Part shown: positions 6,670-24,174 of the stretch, piece by piece
Layout of the letters: every line of letters begins with the position of its first letter
How positions within the stretch are numbered: position 1 is the first letter of the stretch
Position numbers and translations under genes: made by a program
Source of the DNA: a virus
Taxonomy: Duplodnaviria; Caudoviricetes
IMG/VR virus record: IMGVR_UViG_3300045947_000099
Coordinates: 1 to 31,255 of that record
DNA length: 31,255 nt
Strand: one strand, 5' to 3'
Notes under the pieces: model-generated
Told to the model about the DNA's origin: nothing
The model's input: the letters and a program-made list of their open reading frames with translations, nothing else
Databases searched by the model: none

Positions 6670-7618
6670 CGATCACTCTTCCTTTCGGTTGGACTTTGAC
6701 TTTGACCCGCACGGGTTGCTTTCCATCTGCGTGAACGGGTTGATCTTGTCGAAGTGATCGAAGTCCGATGACTTGAGGATCATGTCGCTTTTGCGGGTCT
6801 GGTTCGTGTCCGCTTCGGACGGATACCACTGGTCCTTTACCACGACACCTTTCGTCGATTTCTCGTGCATCGGCAGTCTCCAGGACTTCGTAGACCGGAC
6901 CGGTCCAGCCGGGCCAGAGCCGAGCTCGGCCCGGCCAACGAGACTCATACCACTTCAGCCAGTCGATGGCACGGGCCGGGTCGTTGTAGAAGCTGCGTTT
7001 GCCTGTTGCCGGGTTCTCCAGCCCGAAGAAGTAGCCGGTGCCGTTCACCAGCGTGAAGCCCAGGCAGTAGATCGGCGAGCATCCCATCAGGTGCGCCGTC
7101 TGGATCATGTAGCACAACGAGTTACCACCCGGATGGTAGGGCTGCCGCATCGAGCTCGGCATGAATGGCGGCGTATGCTGGCGTTGGATCCTGCCCTTCC
7201 CGTCGCGCGTGACTGCCTTCGGTTGCTGAATGAAGATCTCACTCACTGGCCACTTCCGCCTCCCCACCACGCGCAGCATGTGCGATCCGGCAACCGAGTA
7301 GGGGCCGCCGCCGAAGAGTCGTTTGCTCGCTACGACAACCAGGGAGTCGGGACATCGAGCGAGTCGCTCTCGCTCGGACTTCCAGACGTTGATGTCAACG
7401 ACATGCCATACGCTGGGGACCAACGCTCGGAGCGTCCAGTTGCTTCCGATGACGATCTCGCCAGCAGCAGCGACAAGTCCTGTGGACTCAAGTAGGCCGC
7501 CGGCTCCCCCAAGAAGGAATGCTGGCTTGCCCGTTCCAATCCCATCAAGCCAACCCGGATCAGCACTTCCGCCGCGCGGTGCGCATAGCTGTGCCGCCTT
7601 GAAATCAGGTAGGAGCAT
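6644..7618 (-). CDS. DUF115/Maf/MptE-like (GT-A-like) putative glycosyltransferase
   Basis: GKPAFLLGGAGGL (GxGPSL-like), VIGSN, HVVD, GGNSLCYMIQTAHLMGCSPIYCLGF match the Maf/DUF115 and CstII-like motif order. Confidence 0.65.
   Translation of the reverse strand: MLLPDFKAAQLCAPRGGSADPGWLDGIGTGKPAFLLGGAGGLLESTGLVAAAGEIVIGSNWTLRALVPSVWHVVDINVWKSERERLARCPDSLVVVASKRLFGGGPYSVAGSHMLRVVGRRKWPVSEIFIQQPKAVTRDGKGRIQRQHTPPFMPSSMRQPYHPGGNSLCYMIQTAHLMGCSPIYCLGFTLVNGTGYFFGLENPATGKRSFYNDPARAIDWLKWYESRWPGRARLWPGWTGPVYEVLETADAREIDERCRGKGPVVSVRSGHEPDPQKRHDPQVIGLRSLRQDQPVHADGKQPVRVKVKVQPKGRVIGGRPTRTR
6673..6870 (-). CDS. Small hypothetical protein (65 aa) nested in the 3' extension of the upstream gene
   Basis: MHEKSTKGVVVKDQWYP... 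with GGAG shortly upstream of ATG 6870; ends 3 nt before the portal start. Confidence 0.5.
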   Translation of the reverse strand: MHEKSTKGVVVKDQWYPSEADTNQTRKSDMILKSSDFDHFDKINPFTQMESNPCGSKSKSNRKEE

Positions 7619-8679
7619 GCATCACCGATCTTCTCGGCTTCGTCGGGGTGCTTCAAGTAGTAGAGCACGAGCTCTACGAAGTGATCGGGGTCCTGCGCGC
7701 GAGGAGCCATCGGGAACAAGCGTGCGAGCTCGCTTCGGTGGTCATCGCTGACCACGCATGTTCCGCAAGCTGCCATCTCCAGGAATCGAGGGTTGACGTG
7801 CGCCGCAGGCAGGTTCGCATCGTTCCAGAACCCGGTTCCTTCTCTCTTCGGCATCTGCCGGCAGAGTTCGATTCCTTCTGGAACGTGCATCGCTCTCGGC
7901 CTGCCCATCACCCGCTTCTTGTAGCACTCGTTGGTGATCTCAGGAGCTCGATGCACGTTGAGCCCCACAATGCAGCTCGCGTAGTGCTTCGGGTGGTCTT
8001 GCAGGGCTACCCACTTCGGATCGTTCTTCCCCACGGTCTTGAAGAACCTGATGTCCGCGCCATCCACGAGCCGCTCAATCGGCTTGAGCCAGTCGAGTCG
8101 TGGAATCAGCGTAGCGTTACCCAAGAAGAACGCAGGCACCTGCCGCCCGGCGTAGGGTCGTCGCGCAAAGTGAACCACATCGACGCCGGGCGGCAAGTAG
8201 AAGACGTTGTTGCGGTCCTTCCTCGATCTTCGATGAACCTCAACCGTGCACGGGTCCATCGTGAAGACGTAGCCGAACCTCGGGCTATAGCGAGCCGTCT
8301 CACCTGACTCGTAGGGCTCGTCGCAGAGATAGACCGCAGTCTTGATCCCATCCTTGCGGAGACGGACCTGGAAGTCCTCGTTGCTCGCCGCGCGGCCGTG
8401 GTGGCACCACACGAGGTGAGGCTTCCACCGGGCAATGTGGTCGGCGATCTGCTTCGCCGTGCCCGGCATGCGCGTGCTCCGGTAAGGCGAGCTACCAACC
8501 GAGACGATCTGCCGCAGCACGCTGATGTCGAAGATCTGAACTTCGCAGCCGATCGCCTCAAAGCCACGCTTCCAGCCAGTCCGGTAGTCATCGCTGTAGA
8601 TCAGCCGGCTGTCATCGGCGATGGCTACGCGGAACTTCTCGGTTGGCCCTACTCCGATCTTCCTAGCTACTGGCTGCAA
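7330..8679 (-). CDS. CgeB/DUF3880-like GT-B glycosyltransferase
   Basis: WKPHLVW, YLCDEPYE, YVFTMD, FYLPPGVD, IVGLNVHR, NPRFLEMAACGTCVVSD, YYLKHPDEAEKI...HSYAHRA. Confidence 0.85.
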   Translation of the reverse strand: MQPVARKIGVGPTEKFRVAIADDSRLIYSDDYRTGWKRGFEAIGCEVQIFDISVLRQIVSVGSSPYRSTRMPGTAKQIADHIARWKPHLVWCHHGRAASNEDFQVRLRKDGIKTAVYLCDEPYESGETARYSPRFGYVFTMDPCTVEVHRRSRKDRNNVFYLPPGVDVVHFARRPYAGRQVPAFFLGNATLIPRLDWLKPIERLVDGADIRFFKTVGKNDPKWVALQDHPKHYASCIVGLNVHRAPEITNECYKKRVMGRPRAMHVPEGIELCRQMPKREGTGFWNDANLPAAHVNPRFLEMAACGTCVVSDDHRSELARLFPMAPRAQDPDHFVELVLYYLKHPDEAEKIGDACSYLISRRHSYAHRAAEVLIRVGLMGLERASQHSFLGEPAAYLSPQDLSLLLARSSSEATGRSERWSPAYGMSLTSTSGSPSESDSLDVPTPWLS

Positions 8680-9283
8680 CCTTCGGCCTCCAGAGCTCGT
8701 GGTCGTGATGTTCGATCTCCGTGTAGCTCACAGCCGGCACATGCCATGCCGAACCACCCTGGGCATGCACAGCCTTCGACCAGAAGACGATCGGATCCAC
8801 CGACCCGAATGGAGTCATCTTGCGCGCGTAGCTGGTCTGCACCACAGCGAACCGGCATCCCTCCAGCGGAGCTCGATTGTGAGGCCGCTTCACCGGGTAG
8901 TGCGTGGTGCTCTTCGTATCGGGGTAGAAATCCACGATGCCAGTGATCGGGTCACGGTCGAAGATCTGCTTGACCTTGCCGAACCACTGCCGGTCCAGCA
9001 GTCGGGTCTCCGGGCCGACGATCGCAGTGAGCTTCTCCACGCAGTCCAGAAGCCCTTCCGCCAAGATCGGGTTGAGCCCCTTGGCCACCCGCTCGTTGGT
9101 CAGCCTCCAGGCTGGCTCGAACTCCTGGAGGTAAGCCTGCAATGATCGAAGATCTTCCTCTGCGGCCCCATCCACCAGGACCAAGGCGCGGAACGGAACG
9201 TCCGTGCAGGCCCGCAGCGCATCGAGGCAGTCAGGGACGAGCTGGAGGTTCTGATGGGGCACCGGCACTAGCACGTCGAGCAA
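8663..9283 (-). CDS. GT2-like (GT-A fold) protein, apparently degenerate
   Basis: LDVLVPV...CLDALRACTDVPFRALVLVDG...KGLN follows the GT2 N-terminal pattern, but the DxD position reads VGPET. Confidence 0.6.
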   Translation of the reverse strand: MLDVLVPVPHQNLQLVPDCLDALRACTDVPFRALVLVDGAAEEDLRSLQAYLQEFEPAWRLTNERVAKGLNPILAEGLLDCVEKLTAIVGPETRLLDRQWFGKVKQIFDRDPITGIVDFYPDTKSTTHYPVKRPHNRAPLEGCRFAVVQTSYARKMTPFGSVDPIVFWSKAVHAQGGSAWHVPAVSYTEIEHHDHELWRPKVAASS

Positions 9284-9470
9284 GGTTCACGTCCTGTTGT
9301 TTGGCACCCTCGCGGCCGATGGTGCGTTTCTGGCATCGGATCGAACAGAAGACCACTATCCGGCGGCCCGCGCGCATGCTGGCTCGCACAGGCCCGGAAG
9401 GCAAGATCACATCACGCTGGCAGCCCCGGCAGGGCACCACGACTGTATCGCCTCCAGCTTCGACGCTCAC
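9231..9470 (-). CDS. Small zinc-finger hypothetical protein
   Basis: CRGC...FCSIRC; GTG 9470 overlaps the TGA of the upstream gene (GTGA). Confidence 0.5.
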   Translation of the reverse strand: MSVEAGGDTVVVPCRGCQRDVILPSGPVRASMRAGRRIVVFCSIRCQKRTIGREGAKQQDVNLARRASAGAPSEPPARP

Positions 9471-9916
9471 AGCAGCCACCCTTTGGCCTTCGGAGGAAGG
9501 GGCGGGAGCTCGCTCGCCGGCACGATGATCTTCGTCTGCTCTTCGTCGGACCACTCTGGAGCCCCGAGCTCGGTCTTGGCTGGATCGAGCACCTTGCGCC
9601 CAGCTCGGACGCCACCTTGGTTGGCCACGAGCTCCTTGGACTGGAGTAGCTGCTCCTTCGTTCGCGCGTTGAATCTGTATTCGTCTTCCGGGGCCGAATT
9701 GTAGGAGATCGAAGTCTTCGAGAGCTGCTCGATTCCGTTCTGGACGGCGTTCTGGACTGCGAACATCACCTGCTCGATCCAGTCTGTCTGTCCGAACTTC
9801 GCGATCAGGATTTCCCCGGTAGCCGCTGCTGCTGCGGTGGCCTCCGGAAGAAATTGCCTTCTTGGCTTTGCTGTGTTCCGGGTGACCGCTGGTCGCTCGC
9901 CGATTTGCTTCGCCAT
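9467..9916 (-). CDS. Hypothetical protein (149 aa)
   Basis: ATG start, codon usage like neighbours, coupled to the downstream gene; overlaps the terminase 3' end by 112 nt. Confidence 0.6.
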   Translation of the reverse strand: MAKQIGERPAVTRNTAKPRRQFLPEATAAAAATGEILIAKFGQTDWIEQVMFAVQNAVQNGIEQLSKTSISYNSAPEDEYRFNARTKEQLLQSKELVANQGGVRAGRKVLDPAKTELGAPEWSDEEQTKIIVPASELPPLPPKAKGWLL

Positions 9917-11535
9917 AGTTCGTTGGTCCCTAACTGGTCCCGCCGGACGTGATCGCGTGCCGGGTAACCATACTCAGGATTGAGCTTGCCGTCGATGATC
10001 GTTGGTTGATGTTTGATGACCGTGGCCATTCGCCAGCCGGGCGGGGGTGCTGGAGCGATCCATTTGCCTTCCTTGTCCTTCTTATCGAGATCGGAGATCG
10101 CATCGGGGATGTCGTCGTGGTCGCTGAACGGCCACTCGGTCATCTCCGCGAACATGGGAGCCCACTTGCGGTGCTGCTCCTTGAGGCTCCTGGCAAACCA
10201 GATCGTGCCACCACGGAAGCGTGGCTCGGCTGCCTCGATGCGCATGTCCTTGATCTCCTGGTTGCGGCCCGCCACCTTGATGATCTTCGGGTGGATGAAC
10301 GTCTGCCGGCGGATCTCCTCGAAGAGCGAAGACAGGAGTTCCGCGTGCGCGGTGTCCTCCAGCACCATGCCCTTCAGGTTGAGGGGCTGGTAACGATTCC
10401 ACAGGTCGCAGGCGATGCGCACAGAATCACTCGGCTTCCATCTCCCAACGTAAAAGTCACGCACGTATGCCGCTCGGTTGCAGTCGAGCGAGACGATCCA
10501 GAACGCTGTGCGGTCCGCCTTGCCCTTCTTCTTCTCTTCCGCGATGAATGCCCAGTCCGTGAAGATGTAGGTCCACACGTGGCTCGGGATGTCGCGATCT
10601 TCGATGACCCTGAAGTAGCTCGGCTTGAAGATCTTCTCATCGTCGGTAGTAGGCTTGTTCTCGTAGTAGCAGGCGAACTGGCGCGGGGGCATGATCGCCT
10701 TCTGCGCCGCGATGAATGCCTCCGTGAGACGACCGGGGAAGAACAGCGTGTTGTCCGGGTTCCTCCACGAGTGGATCGACACCTCGAACAAGTCGCGCAT
10801 GCTCTTGTTCTTGAGCAGCGTGCAGTAAAGATCCGCGTAGTGGTGCAGCGTGCCGATCATCAAGATGCGGCAGCCTGGATCGAGCTGCGCCATCATCTCA
10901 CCGAACCAGTGCCACGTGGTCTGGATGCCTTCGACGGTCTTGGTGTTCTCCTGGGACACCACGTCGTCCATCACGATCAGATCCCAGTGCGAGCCCGTCC
11001 AGACTTCACCGCAGCCAGCCGCGAGCAGCGTCGGCTCCTTCGCGTGCGTGATCGTGCGCAAGGCCGACGTGAACTCGCCGCTGCCTTCCTTCCAGTCCTT
11101 GCCCTTGTGCACCCCGAAGCGTTCTCTGAACCACTCCGAGTTGATGATCTTCATCGCCTGCCGCACGAACTTCTTCGCCTGCTTGCCCGTCTCGGAGGCG
11201 ACACAGATGCGGATGTTCGGGTTGCGCGCGATCTCCCAGCACACCAATCCAACATCGAAGACCGCAGACTTGAACGAGCCACGCGGCCACAGCACGAGCT
11301 TGTAGGTGAAGATCCCTCGATCGCTCTGCGGGTCAGCCTTCCACTTCCACGTCAGGATCTCGTGCGCGCCCTTCCCGTGCGGATACTGCTGCGCGTCTGG
11401 AGCTGCGCCACAGTCGCGCACGAAGTCCAGGAAGCCCTCTTCGGTCTTGTAGTAGGCCGCTTCCTCTTGAAGCCGGTAGCTGCGGAGCTCCTCCGGCGAC
11501 AGGTTGGCTAGACTGTCGGGTAGAGCTGCTTCCAT
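9805..11535 (-). CDS. terL: Terminase large subunit
   Basis: Walker A LVLWPRGSFKS, Walker B DLIVMDDVV, coupling motif IGTLHHYADLY, RNase H-like nuclease IFTDWA...HDDIPDAIS; start re-called at ATG 11535. Confidence 0.93.
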   Translation of the reverse strand: MEAALPDSLANLSPEELRSYRLQEEAAYYKTEEGFLDFVRDCGAAPDAQQYPHGKGAHEILTWKWKADPQSDRGIFTYKLVLWPRGSFKSAVFDVGLVCWEIARNPNIRICVASETGKQAKKFVRQAMKIINSEWFRERFGVHKGKDWKEGSGEFTSALRTITHAKEPTLLAAGCGEVWTGSHWDLIVMDDVVSQENTKTVEGIQTTWHWFGEMMAQLDPGCRILMIGTLHHYADLYCTLLKNKSMRDLFEVSIHSWRNPDNTLFFPGRLTEAFIAAQKAIMPPRQFACYYENKPTTDDEKIFKPSYFRVIEDRDIPSHVWTYIFTDWAFIAEEKKKGKADRTAFWIVSLDCNRAAYVRDFYVGRWKPSDSVRIACDLWNRYQPLNLKGMVLEDTAHAELLSSLFEEIRRQTFIHPKIIKVAGRNQEIKDMRIEAAEPRFRGGTIWFARSLKEQHRKWAPMFAEMTEWPFSDHDDIPDAISDLDKKDKEGKWIAPAPPPGWRMATVIKHQPTIIDGKLNPEYGYPARDHVRRDQLGTNELWRSKSASDQRSPGTQQSQEGNFFRRPPQQQRLPGKS

Positions 11536-12260
11536 GGGAACCGGAGGTTGGGTCCCTTGTGCTTCTGGACCCACTTGCGCCAGCCCCCGCAAGCCTTCGC
11601 CTGCGCCACCTTCTTCAACCGGATCTTCCGGTTGTGCTTGTTGCTGCGATCGAGGCTGGTGACCATCGCGTCGGGGATGCTAGCAACCCCGTGGAAATGC
11701 GCAAACAGGTCCGGTCGATCCTCGATCTTGTAGTGGGCTCGCAGCACGTCAAGCATCTGCACGTCTGACCAGCCCTTGTGGCCCGCAAAGTCTTCGTCGT
11801 AACCACCTACGGCGAAGAAGTCGTCACGGTGGATCAGGTAGGTGTTGGGGCTGGTCATGTCGAGCTTGCCGCTGCTGACGTGCTTCAGCCCATACTTCAG
11901 CACATGGCCGCGCCGCAGCTTCGCTGCTGCCAGCAGCATGCGTCCCATCGTCGGTCCGTCGAACACCATGTCCGGGTCGATCATCAAGCAGTGCCCCGAG
12001 CTCACGTGCATCCCGAGGTTCCGCGCTCCCATCTGGTTCCACGGAATGTCCTGCTCGACGCGCAGCAGCTTGCAGCCCTTCAGGCCAACCGTCATCGCTT
12101 CGATCTCGCGCGGATCCACTGGAGGCTTCCCGCAGTCGTCCACTACCACGAGGTTCAAGCGTTCCTGCGTGTCCACCGAGTAGCAGCGAATGCGGTCCAG
12201 TTGGTAGGCCAGCATCGCCGGCTGGCCATACACAGCCATGATGATCGTTAAATCGATCAT
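11508..12260 (-). CDS. GT2-family glycosyltransferase with a Glyco_transf_7C-like C-terminal motif
   Basis: LTIIMAVY, VVVDDCG, WNQMGARNLG, IDPD (DxD), FFAVGGYDEDFAGHKGWSD; ATG 12260 coupled to the upstream stop. Confidence 0.85.
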   Translation of the reverse strand: MIDLTIIMAVYGQPAMLAYQLDRIRCYSVDTQERLNLVVVDDCGKPPVDPREIEAMTVGLKGCKLLRVEQDIPWNQMGARNLGMHVSSGHCLMIDPDMVFDGPTMGRMLLAAAKLRRGHVLKYGLKHVSSGKLDMTSPNTYLIHRDDFFAVGGYDEDFAGHKGWSDVQMLDVLRAHYKIEDRPDLFAHFHGVASIPDAMVTSLDRSNKHNRKIRLKKVAQAKACGGWRKWVQKHKGPNLRFPWKQLYPTV

Positions 12261-12790
12261 CGAGGAACCTTCTTGAAGATCATCAACCACCTCGCGTGGC
12301 GGCACGACGACTTCAGCAGCTCCCAGCCCTTGAACTTGTCGATCACTGCGCTGACGACGTTCTGACGCACTGCGTGCGCGTCGTGACGATCAGGGACGGC
12401 CACGACCACGAACGACCGGGCCACCTTCTGCGCCTTCTCGATCGTCGCATCGAAGTCGGCGACGTGTTCGAGCACGTCACAGAGCAAGACCGCTTCGTAA
12501 GCGTCATCGAGCTCGCTGTCGATCGTGCCGTGGCGGATCTGGTTGCCCTTCTTCTGTCCGATCTGGACCGCGATCTGGTCGATGTCCAAGCCAAAGCAGT
12601 GGTAGTTGACCGCTTCGAGCTGCGACATGATGAGCCCCTCGCCACAGCCAACATCGAGGATCCCACTGAATGGGGCCACGAACCGCTCGATTTCATGCAC
12701 GAGATCGGTCACGTGATGATGGTAAGGCGATGATCGATCAGCGAAATCCTGGTAGTGGTAGTCACCAGCCATGGCGTATTTCGAAGTCAT
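12257..12790 (-). CDS. Class I SAM-dependent methyltransferase
   Basis: ILDVGCGEG, GLDID, YEAVLLCDVLEHV, VVAVP; no DPPY/PC DNA-methylase motif; ATG 12790 coupled to the upstream stop. Confidence 0.88.
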   Translation of the reverse strand: MTSKYAMAGDYHYQDFADRSSPYHHHVTDLVHEIERFVAPFSGILDVGCGEGLIMSQLEAVNYHCFGLDIDQIAVQIGQKKGNQIRHGTIDSELDDAYEAVLLCDVLEHVADFDATIEKAQKVARSFVVVAVPDRHDAHAVRQNVVSAVIDKFKGWELLKSSCRHARWLMIFKKVPR

Positions 12791-13419
12791 GTTCCATGTC
12801 TCCTGAAGCTCAACAGCTTGTTGTTGTAGATGTCCTTGTCGATCGTGTGAACTCGCTTGAGGCTGTGCCGCATCTTCCAGATCACGAAGGGGAACCAGAT
12901 TTGGTCTCGGGGCACCTCTCGGCACATGGTCCAGACCATGACCATCGCGAACTTCTGGATCGCGTTCGCGTGCGTCCGGCGCGCAACCATGCCCAAAGCC
13001 CACAGTCCGAAGTCGCGCGGGAAGCCTGCCAGCATCAGATGGGAGCGAGCCTTCTGCCCTTCGTCGGCTGTGATCTTCCCACGCTTCACGCACTCATCGA
13101 TCTCCGCATAGGCACAGGTGCGCCAGGGGTGCTTGAACAGGGCGATATCGGCCTGATCCAGCCACTTCTCGACCGACTCGCGCCATTGCATCTTCGGCGT
13201 GAACGACCCGTCCAGGTAGACGCTGGCCATTCCGTTGCGCGGCGGCCACACGAGCTTCTGTTCACGGTTCCAGAGCGTTGCCTCACGCCCCTTGATCCCC
13301 ACCGGAGGGATTCTCGTCTCCGCGTGCACGTCGTCCTCGGGCACGAGCTTCAGCTTGCCGTTGTCGTAGCCGTCAGTGACAGCCGTATAGACGATTATCG
13401 ATGATGCCTGAGAGATCAT
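12787..13419 (-). CDS. DUF616 (TOD1/MUCI70-like) glycosyltransferase-domain protein
   Basis: IVYTAVTDGYD, SVYLDGS, FKHPWRTCAYAE, RDQIWFPFVIWK; ATG 13419 overlaps the HNH gene stop. Confidence 0.82.
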   Translation of the reverse strand: MISQASSIIVYTAVTDGYDNGKLKLVPEDDVHAETRIPPVGIKGREATLWNREQKLVWPPRNGMASVYLDGSFTPKMQWRESVEKWLDQADIALFKHPWRTCAYAEIDECVKRGKITADEGQKARSHLMLAGFPRDFGLWALGMVARRTHANAIQKFAMVMVWTMCREVPRDQIWFPFVIWKMRHSLKRVHTIDKDIYNNKLLSFRRHGT

Positions 13420-13811
13420 CTTCGCCAAGTTTTGCCATGCCTAATCTCGCTAATCGAAGCCTTGCTGAGACCGTAGAGCTTGGCCAGCTCAACTCCTCTC
13501 TTACGACTTCTCCTGATTCGATCAGCTACAGCAAAAGAGATCTTGGCCCTCCCCCTATTGATAACCCGTCTACCTCTCGCAATGCAATCCTGAACGTTCT
13601 TCTTCTGGTCCCCCAGCTCTAGATGATCGATGTTCACGCATGAAGGATTATCGCACTTATGAAGAACGAACATCCCATTTGGAATGTCTCCGAAGTGCAG
13701 TTCGTAGACAGCTCTGTGCGCTAGCATGTTCTTTCTCTTGCCATGCTTCCACACGTGGCATTGCCCATAACCATTCGGCCTGAACGAGCCTCTCCAAGTG
13801 ATACAGTTCAC
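13416..13811 (-). CDS. HNH homing endonuclease (HNH_3 type) with C-terminal HTH
   Basis: CITWRG...GYG...AHRAVYE...VLHKCDNPSCVNIDHLELG...N; ELAKLYGLSKASISEI; lower GC than neighbours. Confidence 0.92.
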   Translation of the reverse strand: MNCITWRGSFRPNGYGQCHVWKHGKRKNMLAHRAVYELHFGDIPNGMFVLHKCDNPSCVNIDHLELGDQKKNVQDCIARGRRVINRGRAKISFAVADRIRRSRKRGVELAKLYGLSKASISEIRHGKTWRR

Positions 13812-16311: not shown

Positions 16312-16566
16312 CTACCGAATGCGAATCAAGGGCATGGCCACCCTGGTCAGCTCTTCCCAGTCGATCGGCGTCTTGGCCACGACCTTCCTGAGCTGCTTCC
16401 AGATCGGGTCGCAGCGGTCGTTCTTGAGCCCCCACAGCACGGCCGCTCGCACGCGAGCATCCTTGGTGGCAATGCCACGCGCCAGCATGCTGAACGCATG
16501 GCAGAGGCACTCTCCGCGCTCCTCGCGCGTGCCTGCTCGCCTCGGTGTGGTGTCGTCGAAGATCAT
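16312..16566 (-). CDS. Hypothetical protein (84 aa)
   Basis: ATGA overlap with the upstream gene. Confidence 0.6.
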   Translation of the reverse strand: MIFDDTTPRRAGTREERGECLCHAFSMLARGIATKDARVRAAVLWGLKNDRCDPIWKQLRKVVAKTPIDWEELTRVAMPLIRIR

Positions 16567-16847
16567 GGCCGTGGATCATCGCACGCGATGCTCGCGTTCG
16601 CCCTCATACGCACCTCTTCGAGAGCGGTCAAGGCCAGGGAGAGCTGACGGCCTGGGTAGCAGAGCTGGCAGAGCTCATGTGCCAAGGAGTAGCAGAGTGT
16701 GCTCACTTCCTCGTGACGGCGGACAGCTTCGGAGTCGCGCGGTGGACGATAGAAGAACCTGCTGTGCAGTTCTTGATCGGTGGGGACCCCGTGCGGATTG
16801 CGCGGGGCTGGTGTGCCTTCCTCGGTGCCTTCGGTTCCGTTACCCAT
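16563..16847 (-). CDS. Acb2/Tad1-hairpin-like protein, candidate immune-signal sponge
   Basis: FFYRPP...RHEEV...LAHELCQLCYPGRQLSLALTALEEVRMRANASIA resembles the family pattern FxYHxP...PxxRExSLAxTxLEExxMWANAxIA. Confidence 0.65.
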   Translation of the reverse strand: MGNGTEGTEEGTPAPRNPHGVPTDQELHSRFFYRPPRDSEAVRRHEEVSTLCYSLAHELCQLCYPGRQLSLALTALEEVRMRANASIACDDPRP

Positions 16848-18290: not shown

Positions 18291-18310
18291 CACACACACA
18301 CACACACACA
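18291..18310. repeat. (CA)10 dinucleotide microsatellite
   Basis: cacacacacacacacacaca read directly in the divergent intergenic region. Confidence 0.95.
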
Positions 18311-18765: not shown

Positions 18766-18828
18766 CCTAGTCTAGTTCTGTTCGTTCTTTCACTGACACT
18801 CACCCTCAACACTCACGAGGCTTCACTT

Positions 18829-19371
18829 ATGGCACGCTCGATAGTTCTCCGCTTCGATGCAACTTGCTTCGACTGTGGCCGATCACTCTCCGCTGGCACC
18901 ACGGCCCGATGGTTCGGCCGCGGTCGCGTCTCATGCTGCGGGCAAGCTCCCGCCGCTTCACCCGCCCCGAGCCCGAGCTCGGAGCTCAGTCTCCCGCCCG
19001 GCTTGCGGAACCCGCGGCACTCGCCGGGCGGTATCCCGCTCTCGTCTCTGATCCCGCCCGGTGCACCCGCGCGCTACGTCGATGCCGCGACTGGCAAGCC
19101 AGTCGCGCCGAGCTCCAACGGCACGGCGTCCGAGCCAGCACCCGACAGCGAGCTCGGTCGCGCCCTTTCCATTGGCCTGAGCTCGCAGCAAGCCGGCCAG
19201 CTTGGCATCGCGTTCCCGATGGTTCGCCTTGTCGTGCGGCTCCACAGTGGCGCACGCTTCATCGTGCGTGCCGAGCACGTGGTGCACTTGTGCGCGTGCA
19301 TCTCCGAGAGCATGCGTGACAAGGTGCGCGACGTGATGCGTGCCGCCCCGAGCTCAGGTGCCACGGACTAA
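18829..19371 (+). CDS. Early hypothetical protein with N-terminal Cys motif
   Basis: MARSIVLRFDATCFDCGRSLSAG...W...CC, Pro-rich linker, C-terminal domain; first gene of the rightward arm. Confidence 0.6.
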   Translation: MARSIVLRFDATCFDCGRSLSAGTTARWFGRGRVSCCGQAPAASPAPSPSSELSLPPGLRNPRHSPGGIPLSSLIPPGAPARYVDAATGKPVAPSSNGTASEPAPDSELGRALSIGLSSQQAGQLGIAFPMVRLVVRLHSGARFIVRAEHVVHLCACISESMRDKVRDVMRAAPSSGATD

Positions 19372-19376
19372 CGACC

Positions 19377-19441
19377 GTGGTCCGGGCCTCGTGCACTTCG
19401 CACACAAGCCCGCTGACGATGGCCCAGGGGGCCGAAACCAC
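19377..19441 (+). ncRNA. Type III hammerhead ribozyme
   Basis: Stem III GUGGU(19377-81)/ACCAC(19437-41); cleavage triplet GUC (C19382); stem I CGGGC(19383-87)/GCCCG(19408-12) with distal GUGC/GCAC; core CUGACGA(19413-19); extra U; stem II GGCCC/GGGCC; GAAA(19434-37). Entirely intergenic. Confidence 0.9.
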
Positions 19442-19462
19442 AAAGACACGGACACTCACCCG

Positions 19463-20548
19463 ATGGCACACTTTTGGGAAAGCGGTTTCGTAGTGCGCGA
19501 GCAAGCATGGCACGGCCTCGCCACTGTTCTCGACAAGGCCCCGACGACTGCGGAAGCTCTCCGACAGTCGCAACTAGACTGGCACGTCAACTTGACGCCA
19601 GTGTTCGCGATGCCGGGCATGGCCCCCGAGCTCGCGGAAAAGAACGGCATCGCAGCCGCTCCGCTCTCCGATGCGCTCTACTGCGATGAAGCTCGCGCGA
19701 TGGTCCGCGAGATCCACCAAAAGGACGGAACCCTGCGTTCCGACGTGTTGGGCATGGTCGGCACGCGATACTGCCCGCTTCAGAACACCGACGCTTTCCG
19801 TTGGTTCGATCCCTTGTGCGCCGATGGCTCAGTGGAGCTCGAAAGCGCGGGCTCAGTGAAGGGCGGTCGCCACGTTTGGATCCTGGCACGCATCGCCACG
19901 AAGCCGCTACAGGTCGGACGCAAGCCGGAAGACGTGGCAACGCCCTACTTGCTGCTGTCGAACTCGCACGATGGCTCGCGCGCAGTGACGGTCGCGTTCA
20001 CCCCCATTCGCGTTGTGTGTTGGAACACACTGTCCGCAGCCAACCGACAAGCGGACAAGCGTGGAGCCAGCTCGCGCAAGGTGCGGCACACTTCGGCCGC
20101 AGCCAACACGCTCGCGGGTGTCCGCGAGACGATTAGCCTAGAGGCCCGGAACTTCGAAGCTAAGGCCCTACTGTGGCGCGAGCTCGCAAAGACAGATCTG
20201 GCTCGCCCCTACAGCCAAGAGCTCGCGCGGCAAGTCGCGCGTTACGCTCGCATCGTGTTCGGCTCGCCGGCCACGGTCGCGAAACACAAGGCAGAAGGCA
20301 CGCTTGCGGAGCTTCCGGAAGTGCGCGCAGAGTCGCACCTATGGGAGCTCGTGCACAAGGGGCCAGGGGCCGATTCCGCGGGTGTCTCGCCGTTCGGCCT
20401 CTACATGGCTGCGACGCACTACAGCGACCACTTCAACGGACACACTGCCGAGACGCGACTGGCTTCGACGTGGTTCGGTGCAGGTGCGCAAGTGCGCGAG
20501 CGTGCCGAAGCTGAAGCCCTTGAGCTCGCGGGCATGGGGGCGGCATGA
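19463..20548 (+). CDS. DUF932 (TIGR03299-like) phage/plasmid protein
   Basis: REQAWHGLA, LDWHV, LGMVGTRYCPLQNTDAF, ESAGSVKGGRHVW, YLLLSNSHDGS, TPIRVVCWNTL, VRHT; start re-called at ATG 19463. Confidence 0.9.
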   Translation: MAHFWESGFVVREQAWHGLATVLDKAPTTAEALRQSQLDWHVNLTPVFAMPGMAPELAEKNGIAAAPLSDALYCDEARAMVREIHQKDGTLRSDVLGMVGTRYCPLQNTDAFRWFDPLCADGSVELESAGSVKGGRHVWILARIATKPLQVGRKPEDVATPYLLLSNSHDGSRAVTVAFTPIRVVCWNTLSAANRQADKRGASSRKVRHTSAAANTLAGVRETISLEARNFEAKALLWRELAKTDLARPYSQELARQVARYARIVFGSPATVAKHKAEGTLAELPEVRAESHLWELVHKGPGADSAGVSPFGLYMAATHYSDHFNGHTAETRLASTWFGAGAQVRERAEAEALELAGMGAA

Positions 20549-21140: not shown

Positions 21141-21281
21141 CCCCCGCCGGCTGTCCCGCCGCCGGGGACGCCCATGTTCCACGGGGACCGCGAGAGATCG
21201 CGTCGCGAGAGATCCGCTTCCCTTTCGCGGAAACGGTGCTACCCTGCATGCGCACGTATCCGCGTGTCATAGGTGTGCTGC

Positions 21282-21320
21282 GCCCCGGCTTGTCGTGAGT
21301 GTCAAGCCGGGGCTTTTTCT
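21282..21320 (+). terminator. Intrinsic terminator
   Basis: 11-bp stem GCCCCGGCTTG/CAAGCCGGGGC, 10-nt loop TCGTGAGTGT, followed by TTTTTCTT. Confidence 0.85.
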
Positions 21321-21331
21321 TGTCACGAGGC

Positions 21332-21360: not shown

Positions 21361-21391
21361 GATCGATGTTCAAGCAGGGGACACACTCACC

Positions 21392-22043: not shown

Positions 22044-23863
22044 TCCTCGAAGTTGACTACGACCCCGACTCAACGCGCTTTCTGATCCGCGTCCCTGGCA
22101 AGATGATCGTTCCTGCGATCAACGAATGGCCAGGGTGGAAGCGCAATCCTAGCGGCACCTACTACGCTCCAGCCTGGGCTAGCTGCGTCCTGCTGCCAAG
22201 CAAGGAACGGGCAACAGAGGTGCGATGGACTGCGAGCGCGAGTCGCAAGCGCGATCTCCTCTTGGCCAACATGGGCTTCGCGAGAGACTCGCTGACGAAG
22301 GGAGCTCAATCGATGAAGCCAACCGGCTGCCCTACGGAGAGGAAGCCACGCCCCTACCAGCTAGCCGGCGTCGAAGCGATGCGAGCGATGGACTGGCGCG
22401 TGCTGCTCGAAGATGAGATGGGCCTTGGGAAGACCAGCACTGCGCTGTGGGCCTTGCACGACAGCCACGTGGCTCGTTGCATCGTGCTTTGTCCTGTCAG
22501 TGCGAAATACAACTGGGAGAACGAGTTCAAGGAGACGCTTGGAGCTCAGTGGCCCAGTGTGTTCGTGATCGACGGCACGCCGAAGCAACGCGCCAACCAG
22601 TTCGCTGAAGTGAAGGAAGCGTGCAACGACAGCAAGGACCCTGCACACGTTGCGATCATCATCAACTACGACCTGCTGCGTTACTTGACCACAGAGCAGT
22701 GGATCTACCTGAAGAACTTCGTGGGAGCAGGGATGCTGCTGTGTGACGAGTCCCACTACGTGAAGGATCGCAACGCAGAACGAACCAAGCTCACTCTGGA
22801 GCTCAGTTGGGCCGCTCGCTTCGCCACGTGCATCTCAGGGACGCCGATCCGCAACATGGCTGACGACCTGTTCACTCAGGTCGAGATCATCAGACCGGGC
22901 ACGTGGAGCTCCTACTGGGATTTCGCCAAGCGGCACCTGACGATCCAGCTCGTGAAGTTCGGCAAGCGTGAGGTGAGGAAGATCGTGGGGTCGAAGAACA
23001 TCGATCAACTCAACGCGATCGTCAACACCTTCGCGATCAAGCGACTCAAGAAGGATGTCGGGGATCTCCCTCCGAAGGTCCACACTTACCCCGAGCTGGA
23101 GCTCGAAGGCGACATGCTCTCCTTCTACAAGAAGATGAAGGAGTTCGCGAAGATCGAGCTCGCGAAGCTCATCGATGATGCTGCATGGCCCACGCACGCA
23201 GCGCAGATTACCATTTGGGACCCGCGAGCCAAGACCGCAGTGGAGGCTGCGCTGCGCTGCGAGCAGATCGCGCAGGGCTTTGTCGGTGGGATCCCTGAGC
23301 CCTTGATGGAGAAGCTCGGCGACTCGCTGAAGCTAGCGGAGAAGATCAAGGGGCGGCCCAATGAGCTCATGCTGCCTAGCTCCCCGAAGATCGTGTGGCT
23401 CATCGAGACCATCGCTCAGGTGCTCAAGCAAGGCGGGGCTCCGATCATCCTGTCCCGCTTCAACGCGCCGATGTTCTGGCTGGAGATGAAGTTCGCAAGC
23501 CTGGGCGTGAAGAGCCGCGTGCTGCACGGCGACCTGAGCGCAGCAGAGAAGCACCTGTTTGTCACCGACTTCCAAGGCGGCCAGTTCGACGTGCTTCTGT
23601 GTCAGGTGAAGATCGCGGAGAGCTGGAACGCGACGCGATGCCAGGATGTGATCTTCCTCACGCGCGACTGGTCCCCTGCGATGAACTCGCAAGGCGAAGA
23701 TCGAGCGCATCGCTTCGGGCAGAAGGGCACGGTCAACGTGCAGATCCCGATCGTGCGCAACACGATCGAGCGACTGATTCACAAGAAGCTGTTGGCGAAG
23801 GGCGTGGACGCAGAGCAGGCTCTTCGAACAGTGACGATCGCTGAACTCATGGAGAACCTCTAA
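22040..23863 (+). CDS. SNF2-family (SF2) helicase/ATPase
   Basis: RPYQ, LEDEMGLGKT, VLCPVS, LCDESH, SGTPIRN, DWSP...QGEDRAHRFGQ. Confidence 0.92.
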   Translation: MILEVDYDPDSTRFLIRVPGKMIVPAINEWPGWKRNPSGTYYAPAWASCVLLPSKERATEVRWTASASRKRDLLLANMGFARDSLTKGAQSMKPTGCPTERKPRPYQLAGVEAMRAMDWRVLLEDEMGLGKTSTALWALHDSHVARCIVLCPVSAKYNWENEFKETLGAQWPSVFVIDGTPKQRANQFAEVKEACNDSKDPAHVAIIINYDLLRYLTTEQWIYLKNFVGAGMLLCDESHYVKDRNAERTKLTLELSWAARFATCISGTPIRNMADDLFTQVEIIRPGTWSSYWDFAKRHLTIQLVKFGKREVRKIVGSKNIDQLNAIVNTFAIKRLKKDVGDLPPKVHTYPELELEGDMLSFYKKMKEFAKIELAKLIDDAAWPTHAAQITIWDPRAKTAVEAALRCEQIAQGFVGGIPEPLMEKLGDSLKLAEKIKGRPNELMLPSSPKIVWLIETIAQVLKQGGAPIILSRFNAPMFWLEMKFASLGVKSRVLHGDLSAAEKHLFVTDFQGGQFDVLLCQVKIAESWNATRCQDVIFLTRDWSPAMNSQGEDRAHRFGQKGTVNVQIPIVRNTIERLIHKKLLAKGVDAEQALRTVTIAELMENL

Positions 23864-24174
23864 TGGGCTGGAACTACGCACGTGCCATCCGTCTCGTTCG
23901 AGCATCGCTGAACATCACGCAGGCCGAGCTCGGCCGCAGGTGTGGTGTGCACGATAGCGCGGTGAGTCGCTACGAGTCGCACTCCCGCAACCCGACGATC
24001 GAGAAGCTCCCGTTGATCTTCGAAGCCTTGGGCTGCACCCCCCAGGAGATGATCGCACTGGCGGAAGACTGGGAAGCCACCAGCCCTACCGCTGACGAGC
24101 GAGCTCGGCTAATCTGCCGGGTCTTGCTGCGGCCCGACGCTGCTACCCCTGTGAACAACGAAGATGGATCTTAG
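23863..24174 (+). CDS. XRE-family HTH transcriptional regulator
   Basis: IRLVRASLNITQAELGRRCGVHDSAVSRYESHSRNPTIEKL. Confidence 0.85.
   Translation: MGWNYARAIRLVRASLNITQAELGRRCGVHDSAVSRYESHSRNPTIEKLPLIFEALGCTPQEMIALAEDWEATSPTADERARLICRVLLRPDAATPVNNEDGS

Follow-up and report, generated by a model that had tools for sequence, protein, structure and literature searches.

Two questions are raised by a 65-nt segment that lies between two genes of an uncultured tailed phage and can be folded into a hammerhead ribozyme: whether the motif is a genuine self-cleaving RNA, and what a cut at this position would mean for the messages of the neighboring genes, one of which encodes a DUF932 protein.

Genomic context of the locus

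The window, i.e., the whole stretch of DNA analyzed here, comprises 31,255 nt of a caudoviricete record (IMG/VR IMGVR_UViG_3300045947_000099). It is identical at the hammerhead locus to G001, a complete genome of 47.9 kb. SU10-type capsid and portal genes occupy the minus arm of the window, and helicase and HTH genes (the HTH protein at 23863-24174) the plus arm. All 515 matching phage records (515/515) show less than 60% identity, and no close cultured relative or host was found among them. The two genes adjacent to the motif, gene 1 and the DUF932 gene (Table 1), are presumably early genes, judging from their position divergent from the structural arm and upstream of the helicase and HTH genes.

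Homologs of gene 1 are encoded in the contigs L003, L004, and L220 and, as read by eye, in L177; its use as a query for further family members returned the same four viral contigs only. The DUF932 protein matches PF06067 (E 1.2e-39). A sequence search for solved relatives gave none (best E 0.49). Its AlphaFold model has a pLDDT of 85.3, and look-alikes in the ESM Atlas are DUF3871 (0.92) and the PhiKZ vertex-binding protein (0.89, a lead only). In the accessible text of a preprint (10.1101/2025.06.20.660599), mutations in a plasmid copy of DUF932 are linked to phage selection.

Elsewhere in the window, a minus-strand frame at 16563-16847 encodes an Acb2/Tad1 hairpin-domain protein (PF24729, E 6.5e-14), likely a sponge against host defense signals. 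A cluster of glycosyltransferase-like and methyltransferase genes (7330-13428, minus strand) adjoins the portal arm. The gap separating the divergent arms contains a (CA)n run at 18291-18310; shorter GT/CA runs occupy the equivalent position in L004, L220, and L177.

Table 1. Features of the hammerhead locus and the surrounding operon (window coordinates)
Feature	Coordinates	Strand	Details
Gene 1 (5' neighbor of the hammerhead)	18829..19371	+	180 aa; without Pfam or PHROG family
Type III hammerhead ribozyme motif	19377..19441	+	Sequence, descriptor, shuffles, covariance model, compensatory changes in L003
Stem III strands	19377-19381 / 19437-19441	+	GTGGT (5') / ACCAC
Predicted cleavage site	19382..19383	+	After C17 (19382) of GUC; hammerhead chemistry
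Stem I strands	19383-19387 / 19408-19412	+	CGGGC / GCCCG
Stem I domain	19383..19412	+	3x4 internal loop; hairpin GUGC-ACUUC-GCAC at the distal end; position 7 after the cut retains U
Core and stem II region	19413..19436	+	CUGACGA, additional U, stem II closed by a short loop without penultimate A, GAA
CACGG	19447..19451	+	Forms, by prediction, an inactive alternative fold through pairing with CCGUG 19375-19379
DUF932 gene	19463..20548	+	PF06067, phrog_1221; 361 aa
Two motif copies before gene 1	18794..18818	+	Either copy is complementary over 10 nt to part of the terminator hairpin
Leader motif GACACTCAC	19451..19459	+	9-nt complement of the terminator loop region
Extended -10-like site	21237..21245	+	Read by eye; could start an RNA of about 70 nt ending at the terminator
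Terminator-like hairpin closing the operon	21282..21321	+	11-bp stem, 10-nt loop (21293-21302), U tract
ACACTCAC, fourth copy in sense orientation	21383..21390	+	Lies 1 nt ahead of the ATG of the gene that first follows the terminator

Sequence evidence for a type III hammerhead

The motif consists of three helices of 5 bp each, of which I and II are closed and III is open. The core is complete: C3-U4-G5-A6-N7-G8-A9 (CTGACGA, 19413-19419) is followed by an extra T (19420, after A9), and G12-A13-A14 corresponds to GAA at 19434-19436; the core residues are invariant across relatives. Stem II is formed by GGCCC (19421-19425) and GGGCC (19429-19433) around an AGG loop, with the G10.1-C11.1 pair present. 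The cut triplet GUC (19380-19382) is of the NUH type, and A19437 contributes to the A15.1-U16.1 pair, which is U-A in all 24 alignment rows with letters (24/24). The initial annotation, made from the letters alone, had listed all core elements in order with paired stems, 5 nt after the gene 1 stop (ending at 19371) and 21 nt before the DUF932 ATG (19463), and had proposed type III identity with a cut between 19382 and 19383. Each element and both spacings were found exactly where it had placed them, and the type and the predicted cut are supported by the sequence, a descriptor, and a covariance model.

On both strands of the window, the type III descriptor has its sole match at 19377-19441; among 1200 dinucleotide-shuffled strands, a loose match arose in three and stems of 5/4/5 bp in none. 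The covariance search suggested by the initial annotation gave a divided answer. The Rfam hammerhead models (clan CL00010, with RF00008 as the type III family) returned no match in the whole window (E<=1) or in 19300-19520 (E<=10), whereas the site scored 49.8 bits, with an E value of about 1e-12, under a covariance model trained on 18 type III hammerheads of other phages, the runner-up reaching 13.5 bits; this test is partly circular since 9 of the 18 training sequences were fetched by a pattern derived from the core and stem II of the window. In 20 related loci, Rfam run at its gathering threshold found eight descriptor matches of type II but none of those of types I and III, so its miss at 19377-19441 reflects the Rfam models; it limits the Rfam label only, not membership in the hammerhead class. 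Class and topology are shared with the Rfam hammerhead families (clan CL00010), none of whose models reaches the phage type I/III copies. Two other Rfam matches, radC (weak, E 5.1) and mir-466 (on a GT repeat), were judged to be due to chance, and no other ribozyme was detected by Rfam in the window. Searches of the genome for a second hammerhead by descriptor (types I-III), covariance model, and Rfam found none, G001 containing one strong covariance-model match followed by one of 10.2 bits.

The hammerhead is probably active. The nucleotide inserted after A9, which the initial annotation had regarded as tolerated, is no hindrance: U occupies this position in 14 of the 19 type III hammerhead family members examined, and an extra U after A9 raises the trans-cleavage rate 3-4-fold according to the accessible portion of a review (PMC3705267). 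An extra base between A9 and G10.1 is shared with the plus-strand hammerhead of CChMVd, which, as described in the available text of PMC3705267 and PMC1636495, belongs to a viroid and naturally contains A instead of the U found here. Tertiary contacts between domains I and II govern hammerhead speed at low Mg2+, as stated in the text available from PMC6155905. The U at position 7 after the cut is kept (16 of the 19 members have it). On the other hand, loop II lacks the penultimate A usual in relatives and loop I/loop II complementarity is limited to 2 bp, so the cleavage rate may be low; significant loop I/loop II complementarity is found in the other 17 members (57 vs 48.6, P 0.0025). The phage type III family of L162-L176, which has the extra U after A9 and is not seen by Rfam, displays covarying loop I/loop II pairing of 2-6 bp, and one member, L167, carries four hammerheads.

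Conservation among related phages

Four of the five phage family members have a hammerhead before DUF932 (the window, L003, L004, and L220). L003 shares 96% protein identity and, over 2738 nt of the operon, 82% DNA identity with the window. Within the motif, 6 of 65 nt differ, representing two compensatory pairs in domain I and two internal-loop changes, with no change in the core, stem II, or stem III; both helices of the stem I domain covary. L004 (71% protein identity) and L220 (70%) contain type III hammerheads with different stems, located 34 and 15 nt before DUF932, respectively. These two contigs encode an additional gene between gene 1 and the ribozyme, and as the upstream gene differs there, it is with DUF932 and not with its upstream neighbor that the ribozyme stays. 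L177 (55% identity) encodes both gene 1 and DUF932, and no hammerhead was found in it; sister phages with and without the ribozyme provide a natural comparison.

In an alignment of 26 model-aligned matches, 96.4% of the cells pair, 11 of the 15 pairs change on both sides, and the covariation reaches 0.613 vs 0.117 in shuffled data, values to be read with the fact that the alignment was fitted to the model, that most rows are training sequences, and that two rows are weak matches. By these comparisons of related sequences, the hammerhead motif is real and conserved.

Hammerheads at the ends of DUF932 genes

With DUF932 queries, 272 loci were fetched, of which 271 matched and were grouped into 172 clusters at 90% identity. 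A canonical hammerhead is present in 14 of the 172 clusters, and all 30 motifs (30/30) lie on the strand of the gene. In 10 clusters a hammerhead abuts DUF932, i.e., lies within 60 nt of its start or stop. The survey of DUF932 leaders that the initial annotation had recommended thus places a hammerhead at the start in 7 of 172 clusters and at the stop in 4 of 172, one cluster having both. Abutting hammerheads occur in 10 of the 14 hammerhead-bearing clusters vs 3.9 expected (P 2e-4, based on rough gene-junction counts) and, when one locus per clade is retained, in 7 of 11 vs 3.3 expected (P 0.009). A looser descriptor yields 0.2 matches per shuffled set of 195 loci. Hammerheads prefer the ends of DUF932 genes, and types I, II, and III are all found near them. 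About 94% of the DUF932 clusters are without an abutting canonical hammerhead, a figure obtained with a descriptor that misses variant cores; with 10 of 172 clusters abutting and none in L177, DUF932 does not need a hammerhead.

Several of these loci have arrangements of their own. Type II arrays of 12, 4, and 2 hammerheads lie between small genes in L270 (154-6844, = L080), L296, and L271, respectively, and in L270 and L296 one type II hammerhead lies 20-21 nt before DUF932. In L084, type III hammerheads are situated on both sides of DUF932 (850-909 and 1946-2003) and would cut out a single-gene RNA. The type III hammerhead of L017 (2563-2657), whose stem II domain is long, is separated from the downstream DUF932 by 1.3 kb.

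Phage hammerheads of this sort were described in 2011, and the present locus adds a conserved example missed by Rfam as well as a measurable hammerhead preference for DUF932. No literature joining DUF932 to hammerheads or other ribozymes was found in our search, although the gene tables for twister (2014) and for twister-sister, pistol, and hatchet (2015) may list it; the terms DUF932, TIGR03299, and pfam06067 are absent from the accessible text of 11 supplementary files of Perreault et al. 2011. In the available text of that study (PMC3088659), hammerheads of all three types flank phage genes, in vitro activity was shown for 14 of the 18 consensus hammerheads tested, and the ardA cluster was active in E. 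coli. The hammerhead described here resembles those phage examples in its canonical core, its location on the coding strand, and its position between phage genes. It differs from the clustered prophage hammerheads of the same text in being a single copy in G001; among the loci collected here, clusters occur in L084, L270, and L296. Its closeness to the start of a putative early gene recalls HHphage of the haloviruses HF1/HF2, which according to the same text is located 13 nt upstream of an early gene whose mRNA 5' end maps within 3 nt of the cut. The two differ in the site of the additional core sequence (near C3 in HHphage, a U following A9 here) and in the gene downstream, which encodes a helicase in the haloviruses and a DUF932 protein in the window.

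Probable processing of the transcript

The most plausible reading, and a fairly likely one, is that the hammerhead cleaves a nascent, probably early transcript after C19382, splitting the gene 1 and DUF932 messages. The two genes would be co-transcribed, as the 5-nt and 21-nt gaps suggest and as no terminator is seen between them. Cleavage would take place during transcription, before the downstream CACGG could trap the RNA in an inactive fold, and the two pieces would part once the 5-bp stem III comes apart. The gene 1 piece would then end in a cyclic phosphate, while the DUF932 piece would begin with an 80-nt 5'-OH leader and extend to the terminator-like hairpin, allowing separate decay or translation of the two RNAs. 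5'-OH ends resist 5'-monophosphate-dependent decay. By analogy with other phage hammerheads, the role of the ribozyme is likely mRNA punctuation; the accessible text of PMC3088659 proposes the cutting of long transcripts into operon- or gene-length messages, and the role of bacterial and phage self-cleaving ribozymes is described as open in the available text of PMC6155905 and PMC6765202.

Self-processing of an early message, as put forward in the initial annotation, may accordingly be retained as the best reading, unlike the purpose assigned to it there, namely a structured 5'-OH end. The occurrence of hammerheads after the DUF932 stop, the presence of types I and II, and the absence of a hammerhead from L177 suggest that cleavage itself counts for more than whatever structure remains on the RNA. 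Over its first 140 nt, the 3' product is predicted to fold without retaining stems I and II.

Ten soil metatranscriptome runs contain part of the window, and seven of them were examined as contigs, which cannot show RNA ends; neither joints nor piled ends are listed for the contigs of these seven. A contig of run X1 (19291-20330) bridges the cut site; Since every bin (30/30) is covered in X1, intergenic ones included, this library may contain DNA. The bin 19332-19492 is uncovered in X2, X3, and X4, and 19279-19433 in X2, X5, X6, and X7, but with many other holes in these patchy runs the gaps carry no weight.

The folding predictions bear on a conditional version of the ribozyme, in which pairing of CCGUG with CACGG keeps it inactive and cleavage depends on ribosome traffic and reports translation: a ribosome terminating on gene 1, five bases upstream, would sit over the cut, whereas one that loads at DUF932 would free stem III. 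Neither the competing fold nor the altered loop II had been noticed in the initial annotation. With 3 nt of downstream sequence only, the hammerhead is the predicted minimum fold; once the leader is made, the competing fold is predicted to be more stable by 1.1-5.8 kcal/mol in both the window and L003 (energies that leave out tertiary contacts), and the predicted probability of stem III falls from 0.75 to 0.01-0.16 as leader is added. The bases forming the trap are conserved in these two phages, and the hammerhead starts 5-8 nt after a stop codon in all four family carriers (4/4). The same predictions show no trap in L004, where stem III is extended and stabilized, or in L084; two strains this close cannot show covariation of the trap, and co-transcriptional folding favors the hammerhead according to the accessible text of PMC1636495. 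Such a switch is considered improbable. We give about the same low credence to a slow or decaying ribozyme, inherited with DUF932, cleaving little here, and kept mainly as a structured spacer. The altered loop II, the extended loop I, the competing fold, the bridging contig of X1, and the loss in L177 could be explained in this way, but a core and stems II and III that are identical in L003 despite flanks of 82% identity, compensatory changes in stem I, and the retained U7 would be hard to reconcile with decay.

Much less probable is preparation of the DUF932 RNA for ligation or circularization through its 5'-OH and cyclic-phosphate ends, rather than simple separation. The hammerheads on both sides of DUF932 in L084 and the 12 in a row in L080/L270 would suit it; against it stand the single strong match in the complete genome, the lack of another Rfam ribozyme in the window, the lack of joints in the seven runs examined as contigs, and the accessible text of Perreault et al. 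2011 (PMC3088659), according to which spliced or circular products were not found. The least credible explanation, to which we attach almost no weight, is a chance match inside a longer DUF932 frame. A frame is indeed open from GTG 19340 through the motif in the window, but this extension is interrupted by stops in L003 and L220, so conservation of the motif is not due to coding, and GTG 19340 was rejected as the DUF932 start. DUF932 homologs begin at the methionine at 19463 (M1 is invariant in 48 sequences), and the absence of an equally good match in 1200 shuffles, together with the conservation and covariation of the motif, contradicts a chance origin.

A candidate antisense RNA that may act on the same leader

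Cleavage of the transcript by the hammerhead would leave a DUF932 leader with a further element. The window contains six copies of ACACTCAC vs 1.14 expected, and 1 of 100 shuffles reaches six. The copy that the initial annotation had noticed between the ribozyme and the ATG is present at 19452-19459. Its suggestion of a layered RNA-based control stands to the extent that ACACTCAC is complementary to the loop of the operon terminator; the motif is not part of the ribozyme, an option ruled out by its absence before DUF932 in L004 and L220. No Shine-Dalgarno sequence was seen in the DUF932 leader. In the complete genome, ACACTCA occurs six times: four copies are in sense orientation, 2-26 nt before three starts, one is a complement in the terminator-like hairpin loop, and one lies elsewhere. 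This hairpin is the only terminator-like one found by a filter in the complete genome; a simple scanner with a loop limit of 8 nt listed neither the hairpin nor the -10-like site upstream of it.

In L003, the stem of the terminator changes compensatorily while its loop and all four leader copies are kept, the fourth even before a different downstream gene. L004 and L220 have an equivalent hairpin with a different loop, and the DUF932 leader of L220 contains a 9-nt complement of the L220 loop. In all four hammerhead carriers (4/4), the DUF932 leader is matched best by the loop of the same genome (9, 9, 6, and 9 nt; reached in 3, 6, 267, and 3 of 5000 shuffles, respectively); the DUF932 leader of L177, which has no hammerhead, is without a loop match (3 nt). 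For gene 1, a good match between leader and loop of the same genome exists only in the window and L003, and two of the gene 1 leaders match the loop of another clade better. When duplexes of the loop seed were ranked over 9564 windows of G001, the leaders were not among the best 14. By eye, a -10-like site can be recognized at a distance of 70-115 nt on the 5' side of the hairpin in five of five genomes (the window, L003, L004, L220, and L177), the matching promoter-hairpin units being at the same place with differing loops.

A loop that is the exact complement of ACACTCAC, and that changes together with it between clades, suggests an antisense RNA, in a comparison comprising three lineages. 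Tentatively, an RNA of 70-115 nt (or the 3' end of the operon) could use its GUGA-centered loop seed to pair with UCAC in the start regions of gene 1 and DUF932 and shut off early translation, with the hammerhead making the 5' end of the DUF932 message; we consider this rather doubtful. If true, two mechanisms, cleavage by a ribozyme and repression by an antisense RNA, would be connected at a single leader. Alternatively, the motif may be a DNA operator, which, read in both orientations, would covary too. The 10-11-nt match between the candidate RNA of L004/L220 and the start of gene 1 could be a remnant of a minus-strand gene start (a 12-codon frame, read by eye). The candidate RNA is akin to the CI RNA of P4 and the c4 RNA of P1, both hairpin-loop antisense RNAs. 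Its loop could contact translation starts as in these two and in the terminator-loop sRNAs of E. coli (PMC11979758); the latter, in the accessible text of that article, act 'likely without base-pairing', whereas pairing is predicted here from sequence alone.

The surroundings of the candidate promoter show additional repeats. A direct repeat of CGCGAGAGAT (21189-21214, plus strand) lies just upstream of it and is kept in L003 while its flanks diverge, making it a possible protein-binding site. Repeated terminator-promoter modules occur in L004 (5805-5830 and 6375-6415) and L220 (7050-7075 and 7600-7640), with the near-palindromic TGAGCGCT, a likely operator, in the promoter spacer. L004 also contains two tandem small frames of GGTCC[AGT]-type hexamer repeats at 6670-7100.
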